From Escherichia phage vB_EcoM-CHD94UKE2: DNA of 64,000 nt. The stretch lies in sequence record MZ234031.1, one strand, 5' to 3'. A program made the position numbers and the translations under genes. Positions 44,850 to 45,867 of the stretch are shown here, piece by piece (position 1 is the first letter of the stretch; each line of letters starts with the position of its first letter). The notes under the pieces are model-generated. The model worked only from the letters and a program-made list of their open reading frames with translations. It searched no databases and had not been told where the DNA came from.

Positions 44850-44922
44850 TGGGAATTAGCCAAGTTGGTAAGGCACTGGATTTTGATTCCAGGATGCAAA
44901 GGTTCGAGTCCTTTATTCCCAG
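44850..44922 (+). tRNA. tRNA-Gln (anticodon UUG)
   Basis: cloverleaf read by hand: acceptor TGGGAAT/ATTCCCA, anticodon loop TTTTGAT, T-loop GGTTCGAGTCC. Confidence 0.85.
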
Positions 44923-44923
44923 C

Positions 44924-45010
44924 GCGAGAATGGCCAAATTGGTAAAGGCACAGCACTTAAAATGCTGCGGAATGATTTCCTTGTGGGTTCGAGTCCCACT
45001 TCTCGCACCA
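44924..45010 (+). tRNA. tRNA-Leu (anticodon UAA), type II with long variable arm, CCA encoded
   Basis: acceptor GCGAGAA/TTCTCGC, anticodon stem CAGCA/TGCTG loop CTTAAAA. Confidence 0.85.
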
Positions 45011-45015
45011 AATTT

Positions 45016-45089
45016 GCGGATATCGTATAATGGTATTACCTCAGACTTCCAATCTGATGATGTGAGTTCGATTCTCATTATCCGCTCCA
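45016..45089 (+). tRNA. tRNA-Gly (anticodon UCC)
   Basis: acceptor GCGGATA/TATCCGC, anticodon loop CTTCCAA, CCA encoded. Confidence 0.85.
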
Positions 45090-45099
45090 ATTTAATTTA

Positions 45100-45173
45100 C
45101 TCCGTGTAGCTCAGTTTGGTAGAGCGTCTGCTTTGGGAGCAGAATGTCGTAGGTTCAAATCCTGCCACGGAGA
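45100..45173 (+). tRNA. tRNA-Pro (anticodon UGG)
   Basis: acceptor CTCCGTG/CACGGAG, anticodon stem TCTGC/GCAGA loop TTTGGGA. Confidence 0.8.
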
Positions 45174-45175
45174 CT

Positions 45176-45265
45176 GGAGGCGTGGCAGAGTGGTTTAATG
45201 CACCGGTCTTGAAAACCGGCAGTCGCTCCGGCGACTCATAGGTTCAAATCCTATCGCCGCCGCCA
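45176..45265 (+). tRNA. tRNA-Ser (anticodon UGA), type II
   Basis: anticodon stem CCGGT... loop CTTGAAA, variable-arm hairpin GTCGC/GCGAC, T-loop GGTTCAAATCC, CCA encoded; acceptor position 3:70 reads A:G. Confidence 0.8.
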
Positions 45266-45270
45266 GTTTT

Positions 45271-45346
45271 GCTGATTTAGCTCAGTAGGTAGAGCAACTC
45301 ACTTGTAATGAGAAGGTCGGCGGTTCGATTCCGTCAATCAGCACCA
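45271..45346 (+). tRNA. tRNA-Thr (anticodon UGU)
   Basis: acceptor GCTGATT/AATCAGC, anticodon loop CTTGTAA, CCA encoded. Confidence 0.8.
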
Positions 45347-45347
45347 A

Positions 45348-45422
45348 GGCCCTGTAGCTGGAAGGTTCAAGCAAGCGACTCATAATCGCCAGATGGTGGT
45401 TCAATTCCACCCAGGGCCACCA
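45348..45422 (+). tRNA. tRNA-Ile (anticodon CAU, presumably lysidine-modified to read AUA as in T4)
   Basis: acceptor GGCCCTG/CAGGGCC, anticodon loop CTCATAA, CCA encoded. Confidence 0.75.
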
Positions 45423-45431
45423 AATTAATTT

Positions 45432-45518
45432 GGGGAGTTATCCCGTAGAGGTAGCGGTGTGGACTGTAAATCCATTGTCATTGCGACTCGGGTGGTTCGA
45501 CTCCACCATTCCCCACCA
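45432..45518 (+). tRNA. tRNA-Tyr-like (anticodon GUA), type II; D-arm atypical
   Basis: acceptor GGGGAGT/ATTCCCC (one G-U), anticodon stem GTGGA/TCCAT loop CTGTAAA, long variable arm, T-arm GGTGG-TTCGACT-CCACC, CCA encoded. Confidence 0.6.
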
Positions 45519-45522
45519 ATTT

Positions 45523-45597
45523 GGATGTGTAGCTCAATGGCAGAGCGATCGCCTGTTAAGCGATTGGTTATAGGTTCGAATCCTATCACGTCCGCCA
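45523..45597 (+). tRNA. tRNA-Asn (anticodon GUU)
   Basis: acceptor GGATGTG/CACGTCC, D-stem GCTC/GAGC, anticodon stem ATCGC/GCGAT loop CTGTTAA, CCA encoded. Confidence 0.8.
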
Positions 45598-45601
45598 AAT
45601 T

Positions 45602-45617
45602 TGTGACAACTGTCACA
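45602..45617. repeat. perfect palindrome TGTGACA-AC-TGTCACA in spacer between tRNA-Asn and tRNA-His
   Basis: read directly; 7-bp inverted repeat with 2-nt spacer. Confidence 0.7.
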
Positions 45618-45711
45618 TTAATATCTACTTGACGCGATTATAGGGGTTGAACTGATCACTCTTCTCTTAATTTCGTGTGAAGACATCTTGATTGTTGGAG
45701 TAGGTATTAAT

Positions 45712-45787
45712 GTGGCCGTAGTTCAGTTGGTAGAACTCGAGATTGTGATTCTCGTAGTCATGGGTTCGACTCCCATCGGTCACCCCA
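45712..45787 (+). tRNA. tRNA-His (anticodon GUG)
   Basis: acceptor GTGGCCG/CGGTCAC, D-stem GTTC/GAAC, anticodon stem CGAGA/TCTCG loop TTGTGAT, discriminator C, CCA encoded. Confidence 0.8.
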
Positions 45788-45791
45788 ATTA

Positions 45792-45867
45792 CGGGGCATA
45801 GCTCAGAAGGAAGAGCAAGGACCTTCTAAGTCCTAGGTCGTAGGTTCGATCCCTACTGCCTCGACCA
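45792..45867 (+). tRNA. tRNA-Arg (anticodon UCU)
   Basis: acceptor CGGGGCA/TGCCTCG, anticodon stem AGGAC/GTCCT loop CTTCTAA, CCA encoded. Confidence 0.85.

Follow-up and report, generated by a model that had tools for sequence, protein, structure and literature searches.

Which genes separate tRNA-Ile from tRNA-Arg in a large phage cluster of transfer RNA (tRNA) genes, and what stands in the same place in T4? The question is raised by a stretch of 64,000 nucleotides (nt) from Escherichia phage vB_EcoM-CHD94UKE2 (sequence record MZ234031.1), analysed at its full length and referred to below as the window. ARAGORN finds eleven tRNA genes on its + strand, at 44850-45867, in the order Gln, Leu, Gly, Pro, Ser, Thr, "Met" (CAT), Tyr, Asn, His, Arg, and none elsewhere in the 64-kb window. 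A preliminary description of this DNA, based on hand-folding, had listed the same eleven genes at the same coordinates and in the same order. The ARAGORN coordinates place Tyr, Asn, and His between Ile and Arg, as described. The description had also stated that T4 possesses eight tRNAs and two stable RNAs, which the T4 RefSeq map indeed locates in the same operon. From this it had proposed that functional tRNAs might stand where T4 has the stable RNAs, and here it was mistaken. A comparison of the T4 Ile-Arg interval, which it had recommended, reveals the segB gene and no stable RNAs, and the window harbors homologs of both stable RNAs, rnaD and rnaC, further downstream (46233-46492). With high confidence, the region is a Tequatrovirus tRNA operon in its segB-free, T2-type form, supplemented by one added cassette. 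This cassette is composed of tRNA-His and of a conserved structured spacer located directly upstream of it, which may be a further stable RNA.

The cluster was analyzed with the covariance models of Rfam 15, at the gathering scores and in a permissive pass (E<=10) over 44600-46400. The tRNA model RF00005 accepts ten of the eleven genes at its gathering score, with 57.7-74.1 bits for a threshold of 29. The upstream part of the cluster is formed by tRNA-Gln (anticodon UUG; 44850-44923, 67.4 bits), a T4-type gene, tRNA-Leu (UAA; 44924-45010, 64 bits), near-identical to that of T4, tRNA-Gly (UCC; 45016-45089, 65.8 bits), identical to that of T4, tRNA-Pro (UGG; 45100-45174, 69.7 bits), tRNA-Ser (UGA; 45176-45265, 57.7 bits), and tRNA-Thr (UGU; 45271-45346, 72.9 bits). 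These are followed by the CAU-anticodon gene (45348-45422, 59.9 bits), tRNA-Tyr (GUA; 45432-45518), a class II tRNA whose variable arm is long and whose D arm is non-canonical, tRNA-Asn (GUU; 45523-45597), which has the top RF00005 score of the window (74.1 bits), tRNA-His (GUG; 45712-45787, 65.1 bits), with C73 and a T at position -1 (45711), and tRNA-Arg (UCU; 45792-45867, 66.1 bits), which is of the T2 type found in phages BW-1 and T2. Rejection of the Tyr, Asn, and His candidates by covariance models, which the preliminary description had named as fatal to its proposal, does not occur for Asn and His; Tyr alone formally falls below the gathering score, and is rescued by other evidence (see below). 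Besides the tRNAs, the permissive scan returns chance-level matches only (Plastid-ycf2, sX4, YrlA). Eleven high-scoring cloverleaves within 1,018 bases are far above chance.

The gene with the CAT anticodon, printed as Met by ARAGORN, has as its best full-length E. coli matches chromosomal genes annotated as tRNA-Ile (81.6% identity, in 5,336 of 5,426 genomes). Judged by these nearest host genes it is a tRNA-Ile2 of the ileX/ileY, presumably lysidine type and not a tRNA-Met, so that the name Ile given in the preliminary description is retained and that of ARAGORN set aside. The tRNA-Asn gene is canonical: ARAGORN folds it as a cloverleaf with the loop CUGUUAA, and it is 100% identical to the tRNA-Asn of T2.

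The eleven-tRNA layout is itself common, catalogued, and already known. The segment 44600-46300 (1,701 base pairs, bp) is 100% identical to Escherichia phages vB_EcoM-G3F7 (MZ234035) and G3F10 (MZ234038), both Tequatroviruses, and the G3F7 record annotates every one of the eleven tRNAs with a matching name. At least 80% of this 1,701-bp query is covered by 257 phage records, and 186 records reach this coverage for the Ile-to-Arg segment. The layout therefore carries little news, being annotated in GenBank for the same sequence and for roughly 190-260 relatives, and being explained in the literature by SegB homing. Less expected are the structured spacer and the absence of an encoded G-1 in tRNA-His, both side observations. 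In 10-tRNA relatives such as BW-1, tRNA-Asn is directly followed by tRNA-Arg, and the window differs from them by a single insertion of 195 bp, comprising the spacer and tRNA-His.

What T4 has in this interval is documented by its RefSeq record, in which the order, in the direction of transcription, is Gln-Leu-Gly-Pro-Ser-Thr-Ile-segB-Arg-rnaD-rnaC, followed by e.8. The Ile-Arg interval of T4 is thus the site of segB, a GIY-YIG homing endonuclease gene, and both stable RNAs are found farther downstream, past Arg. In the window, the list of open reading frames (ORFs) contains none of segB size between Ile and Arg. Phages T2L, RB1, and RB3 are likewise devoid of segB (Brok-Volchanskaya et al. 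2008, PMC2330249). The site that SegB prefers spans 27 bp at the 3' end of the tRNA-Asn gene, and in T4 x T2L crosses 99.6% of the progeny inherit segB; homing results in the loss of a T2L block with tRNA-Met, Tyr, Asn, Arg, and two ORFs (PMC2330249). The 3' part of the window tRNA-Asn gene (45573-45599) reads GGTTCGAATCCTATCACGTCCGCCAAA. It contains the GGTTCRANTCC...CCAR consensus and all five of the "preferred" bases (G6, A16, G18, A26, and A27) of PMC2330249, by which that paper tells the preferred site apart from weaker ones. The window region is a segB-free allele of T2 type and, since its tRNA-Asn gene holds the preferred bases at this predicted site, a SegB target by sequence. For the same reason, a co-infecting segB+ phage should convert the window allele, as it does that of T2L. 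The corrected comparison with T4 presents the variable Ile-Arg slot as a homing-endonuclease battlefield, and not as a site of stable RNAs.

The cassette that sets the window apart from its 10-tRNA relatives opens with the spacer. The gap between tRNA-Asn and tRNA-His is 114 nt wide, and a conserved element of 95 nt on the + strand fills positions 45617-45711, ending exactly at position -1 of tRNA-His. Folding with RNAalifold and single-sequence folds predict that the element is closed by a helix of 14 bp, P1 (ATTAATATCTACTT / GGAGTAGGTATTAAT), and contains a middle arm, P2, that is variable, together with P3, a hairpin of 4 bp whose 7-nt loop reads UCWUGAU. In a MAFFT alignment of 16 distinct sequences, 89.6% of the cells of this fold are paired, and sliding the partners lowers this to 27-45%. 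Within P1, the nine inner pairs are 100% paired in this alignment and six of them display compensatory changes. All four pairs of P3 are compensatory, and the observed covariation score is reached by none of 500 shuffles. A model-based alignment, with 18 distinct sequences, has P1 paired at 98% with compensatory changes at 7 of its 14 pairs, and all four P3 pairs are compensatory there too. A helix is not claimed for P2, which is 69-73% paired with at most one compensatory pair. A covariance model built on the element (R1) reaches 52-102 bits on the tRNA strand, whereas the opposite strand gives no more than 27.5 bits; such strand-specific scores fit an RNA with G.U pairs.

The element is found in 355 phage records, as a single copy every time, and its compensatory changes extend over seven or more phage genera. 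Its place is directly 5' of tRNA-His in Tequatro-, Karam-, Jiaoda-, Gelderland-, Roskilde-, and Winklervirus phages. In Escherichia phage W70, a member of the Vequintavirinae (locus L007), it sits exactly between tRNA-Gly and tRNA-Gln and shares 87% identity with the Tequatrovirus copy, which suggests, from the sequences compared, a recent transfer between phage subfamilies. The GenBank record of W70 lists no tRNAs here, and ARAGORN gives Tyr, Gly, Gln, and Pro at 24-850 of this locus. A metagenome scan with the helix end and the start of tRNA-His returns 14 loci, of which 12 are near-identical relatives and two are chance matches lacking a tRNA, so that little sequence diversity was gained. 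The spacer (45598-45711) has no Rfam 15 match at E<=10, and no annotation of it is present in any record examined.

Other natures of the spacer were considered and set aside. An internal promoter was dropped, as a promoter scan gives no sigma-70-like site on the + strand within it; its TTGACG is not conserved, being TCAACG in Klebsiella phages. A miniature inverted-repeat transposable element (MITE) or another transposon, to which the terminal inverted repeat might point, is contradicted by the single copy per record, the compensatory changes in the arms, and the strand-specific model. A coding function is at odds with lengths that range from 91 to 107 nt and vary by non-multiples of three, and a host origin with the lack of any match in 5,426 E. 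coli genomes.

Two proposals follow for the spacer, each held with moderate confidence. According to the first, the element would be a stable structured RNA freed by tRNA processing, and hence one more stable RNA in tRNA operons of the T-even type; the case for it and the case against it are about evenly balanced. The second, to which a similar, middling probability is given, is that the element represents an undescribed RNA family of ~95 nt that travels with tRNA-His through the Straboviridae and has passed once into the Vequintavirinae, a third stable RNA which would be the counterpart, by position and architecture, of RNA III of phage T5. It may further be speculated that the spacer affects the RNase P cleavage or the maturation of the U-1 tRNA-His precursor.

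Between tRNA-Asn and the spacer element, a small perfect hairpin, GTGACA-AC-TGTCAC, was read from the sequence at 45603-45616 (+ strand). In Karam-, Gelderland-, and Roskildevirus relatives, too, the TGTCAC half stands immediately before the element. In Klebsiella phages this half is lacking and the element begins right after the CCA of tRNA-Gln. In the clusters of Salmonella phage Melville (locus L006, 489-600) and Enterobacter phage id4496 (L008, 489-600), as well as in locus L013, the gap between tRNA-Gln and tRNA-His amounts to 213 nt, and a second conserved non-coding segment of ~110 nt is present upstream of the structured element. This segment could be a further RNA.

The limits of the operon can be drawn from T4. 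A middle-promoter-like region at 44753-44780 (+ strand) contains a sequence that resembles the well-established MotA-box consensus, ATATGCTTTA (44753-44762), and a -10-like TATTAT (44775-44780); it is base-for-base identical to the T4 sequence upstream of tRNA-Gln. In T4, the middle promoter for the whole tRNA transcript is located just upstream of the cluster, and the transcript stops after the species I RNA gene (PMC2330249). Downstream of tRNA-Arg, and on the same strand, the window possesses an ORF of 116 residues (45886-46236), which matches phrog_3355 (unknown function) with E=2e-53 and shares 96% identity with the ORF that follows tRNA-Arg in T2, T4 having no counterpart at the same place. 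It is followed by a homolog of rnaD, the species 2 stable RNA (46233-46347, +), 73% identical to T4 rnaD. In the alignment its 5' and 3' parts are those of T4 and its middle is divergent or replaced. The aligned start of the rnaD-like RNA overlaps the stop codon of the 45886-46236 ORF, while T4 rnaD begins 1 nt after tRNA-Arg. A homolog of rnaC, the species 1 stable RNA (46354-46492, +), is 97.8% identical to that of T4. An intrinsic terminator at 46543-46575 (+) displays a hairpin (46543-46566) whose 10-bp stem is G+C-rich and precedes a run of T; it can be aligned to the T4 sequence that comes after rnaC.

By analogy with T4, a single transcript would start at the middle promoter, identical to that of T4, near 44753-44780 and run as far as the terminator (46543-46575). 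It would be cut by RNase P and the 3' trimming enzymes of the host into eleven tRNAs, the spacer RNA of ~95 nt, the mRNA of the ORF, rnaD, and rnaC. Its first six tRNAs correspond to the T4 set and its Ile(CAU)-Tyr-Asn-Arg-ORF block to the T2 allele, the 195-bp cassette of spacer RNA and tRNA-His having been inserted between Asn and Arg.

The tRNAs may supplement the host pool, in view of an A/T-rich codon usage and a high Tyr and Asn demand, and they may replace host tRNAs destroyed by tRNA-cutting defence systems. Codons were counted in 77 long ORFs of the window, per 1000 codons, and set beside approximate E. coli K-12 values. Tyr codons amount to 45 (E. coli ~28), Asn codons to 56 (~39), His codons to 15 (~23), ATA to 14.5 (~4.4), and AGA to 10.6 (~2.1). 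Codons that end in A and are read by the T4-type tRNAs show a 1.5- to 5-fold enrichment relative to these E. coli values. Since His codons appear rarer than in the host, supply and demand account for Tyr and Asn, and not for His.

Several points weigh against this account of the operon. The scarcity of His codons in the window ORFs (15 versus ~23) is one of them. The limits of the transcript and its processing are transposed from T4, and the sensitivity of the window allele to SegB is predicted from its sequence. The tRNA-Tyr gene misses the RF00005 gathering score, and a few GenBank records call its homolog tRNA-OTHER or tRNA-Val. Finally, tRNA-His has no encoded G-1, the main identity element for the E. 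coli histidyl-tRNA synthetase (HisRS) (PMC9976931).

Tyr, Asn, and His might be kept mainly as spares or decoys against tRNA-cutting defences and not for codon supply, a possibility that can be entertained only tentatively. All three have GUN anticodons, and GUN-anticodon tRNAs form the set cut by colicin E5-type nucleases; the link of the present genes with these nucleases is our own suggestion. The three anticodon loops match those of the host (by alignment for His and for Tyr), and the genes may therefore offer an extra substrate and not resistant variants. The apparent scarcity of His codons, relative to an approximate host value, points the same way. On the other side, Tyr and Asn codons are 1.4-1.6 times commoner than the approximate E. 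coli values, so that supply is a sufficient reason for both. Phage tRNA-Tyr has been shown to neutralise Septu (PMC13096335) and retron-Eco7 (PMC11555353), but a phage tRNA-Asn gave no rescue from PrrC170 (PMC11555353). Defence evasion is documented for tRNA-Tyr only.

The body of the His gene is that of a tRNA. ARAGORN folds it as a cloverleaf, it is 80.3% identical to E. coli hisR in 5,426 of 5,426 genomes, and it combines its high score (65.1 bits) with C73 and a GUG anticodon. However, the gene might not yield a normal histidine acceptor: the tRNA would be processed without G-1, be poorly charged by HisRS, and perhaps have hitch-hiked with the spacer RNA, with which it travels as one cassette. 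In bacteria, the histidine identity set consists of G-1 and C73, and G-1 is normally encoded in the gene (PMC9976931). In the window C73 is present and the encoded G-1 is absent. Position -1 (45711) is a T there and in T5, Phi_KR8, X20, Cronus, and the other phages aligned, where E. coli hisR carries a G. Counted by lineage, this T occurs in the window and in five further phage lineages, T5 among them. The phage demand for His codons also appears low (relative to an approximate host value). Against this, the His gene is strongly conserved across genera, with compensated changes in the T stem, and the T5 record begins its tRNA-His at the T at -1 and annotates an effective amber suppressor. Furthermore, the main role of the -1 base is to place the 5' phosphate, and a U-1 tRNA might still be charged (PMC9976931). 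A tRNA-His unable to act as a normal histidine acceptor is on balance unlikely. A literature search on phage tRNA-His genes without G-1 found nothing relevant among the papers searched. The consistent lack of an encoded G-1 in coliphage tRNA-His genes raises the question of whether and how such tRNAs get charged.

That the Tyr-like gene is a tRNA-like pseudogene instead of a working tRNA-Tyr is very improbable. In favour of this reading, RF00005 remains below its gathering score on this gene, and the permissive scan returns tRNA-Sec alone, at 33.9 bits against a threshold of 47. The 4-bp D stem drawn by ARAGORN contains a C.C mismatch. The homolog is labelled tRNA-OTHER, tRNA-Val, or "Pseudo-GTA" in some records, and T6 tRNA-Tyr has been described as relatively unstable (PMC13096335). 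Yet the gene displays, by ARAGORN and in an alignment with T6, T5, and Klebsiella phages, a CUGUAAA loop with the GUA anticodon, A73, a long variable arm, a 7-bp acceptor stem, and a canonical T arm. The loop, A73, and the variable arm match E. coli tRNA-Tyr. It is 85/87 identical to T6 tRNA-Tyr, both differences being changes from G-C to G.U within stems, and the differences of the BW-1 and T2 genes are likewise G-C to G.U changes inside stems. T6 tRNA-Tyr has been detected by Northern blot, and its overexpression rescues T6 from Septu (Chihara et al. 2026, PMC13096335). This system cuts tRNA-Tyr in its variable loop, and T4, having no tRNA-Tyr gene, cannot escape (PMC13096335). The T5 homolog, with 82.6% identity, counters retron-Eco7 (PMC11555353), and according to the annotation of the T5 record it becomes an effective amber suppressor once its anticodon is replaced.

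An alternative D arm, with a 3-bp CCG/CGG stem after a 4-nt connector, fits the window, T6, and Klebsiella phages, and its stem covaries to CTG/CAG in T5. The ARAGORN register was set aside, as it fails in the Klebsiella-phage homologs. Such a non-canonical D arm probably explains both the RF00005 miss and the OTHER, Val, and Pseudo labels. We conclude, from these comparisons of sequences, that the candidate is a genuine tRNA-Tyr whose D arm departs from the canonical form. As for the notion that Tyr, Asn, and His replace the tRNA-like stable RNAs of T4, rnaC and rnaD being their degenerate counterparts, it is refuted: T4 does possess two stable RNAs in its tRNA operon, and rnaC contains a T-arm-like GGGTTCGAATCCCGG segment, but in T4 these RNAs lie downstream of Arg and the Ile-Arg interval is that of segB, the T2 and T6 maps exhibit the same layout, and the window holds both homologs in addition to the three tRNAs.

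Further observations concern individual tRNA genes and other clusters. Relative to T4, tRNA-Gln and tRNA-Pro exhibit clustered, mutually compensating changes in their anticodon stems, the remainder of each gene being identical, and loop positions 32 and 38 of tRNA-Gln are U/U in the window and C/C in T4. In Karamvirus-type clusters (L011 7816-7911, L013 8491-8585, and L014 943-1038), ARAGORN reports an unusually long "tRNA-Phe/Met" of 95-96 nt with the anticodon at 35-37, which may in each case be a tRNA with an insertion or else a tRNA-like RNA. The Karamvirus cluster of Enterobacter phage CW742 (L004, 1429-2043) harbors a homing endonuclease gene directly after tRNA-His, which is another endonuclease gene lodged between phage tRNA genes.

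Compared with T4, the window shares the segment from the promoter to tRNA-Thr (97% identity), the two stable RNAs, the terminator, and the general neighbourhood, with a trna.2-like ORF upstream and an e.8-like ORF downstream. It differs from tRNA-Thr to rnaD, a segment composed of Ile-segB-Arg in T4 and of Ile-Tyr-Asn-spacer-His-Arg-ORF, with no segB, in the window. Even the Ile and Arg genes are only ~61% identical to T4 tRNA-Ile and tRNA-Arg.

The nearest known organisation is that of T2 and of 10-tRNA Tequatroviruses such as BW-1, Sf23, and Lutter (PMC2330249 for T2L). In T2 the order is Gln, Leu, Gly, Pro, Ser, an ORF, Met(CAU), Tyr, Asn, Arg, and the 116-residue ORF. Like the window, T2 lacks segB; the CAU-Ile and Asn genes are both 100% identical, the preferred SegB site in Asn and the Arg type are shared, the Tyr genes differ by three substitutions, and the similarity extends to the ORF after Arg. 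T2 differs by the ORF that it has in place of tRNA-Thr, and neither T2 nor the 10-tRNA phages possess the cassette of spacer RNA and tRNA-His that the window has between Asn and Arg. In T6, the order is Gln, Leu, Gly, Thr, Met(CAU), Tyr, segB, Arg. Its tRNA-Tyr is closely similar to that of the window, as stated above, but segB follows Tyr directly, Ile and Arg are of the T4 type, and Pro, Ser, Asn, and His are missing. The differences between T2, T4, and T6 at this site have published explanations, namely SegB homing (2008) and the SegB-driven amplification of tRNA-Tyr against Septu (2026).

The spacer finds its closest parallel in T5. There, "RNAIII" (NC_005859; locus L027, 3285-3390, minus strand) is an annotated stable RNA that abuts the tRNA-His 5' end and has in its fold a 12-bp closing helix as well as a small 3' hairpin. 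The R1 model finds nothing at E<=10 on this T5 locus, and no sequence similarity is detectable; homology is therefore not claimed, and the analogy alone is retained. A literature search on the T5 stable RNAs found nothing relevant among the papers searched. The middle arms of the two elements are unlike, and the T5 RNA is annotated as stable, whereas that of the window is known from its sequence. Both elements, however, are located directly 5' of tRNA-His, their ends form a long closing helix, a small hairpin stands just before the 3' strand of this helix, and position -1 of tRNA-His is a T (L027 3284 in T5). To our knowledge, the functions of T4 rnaC and rnaD and of the T5 stable RNAs have remained unknown for decades. 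A third and widely shared stable-RNA example, with clear covariation, would provide a new handle on all of them.

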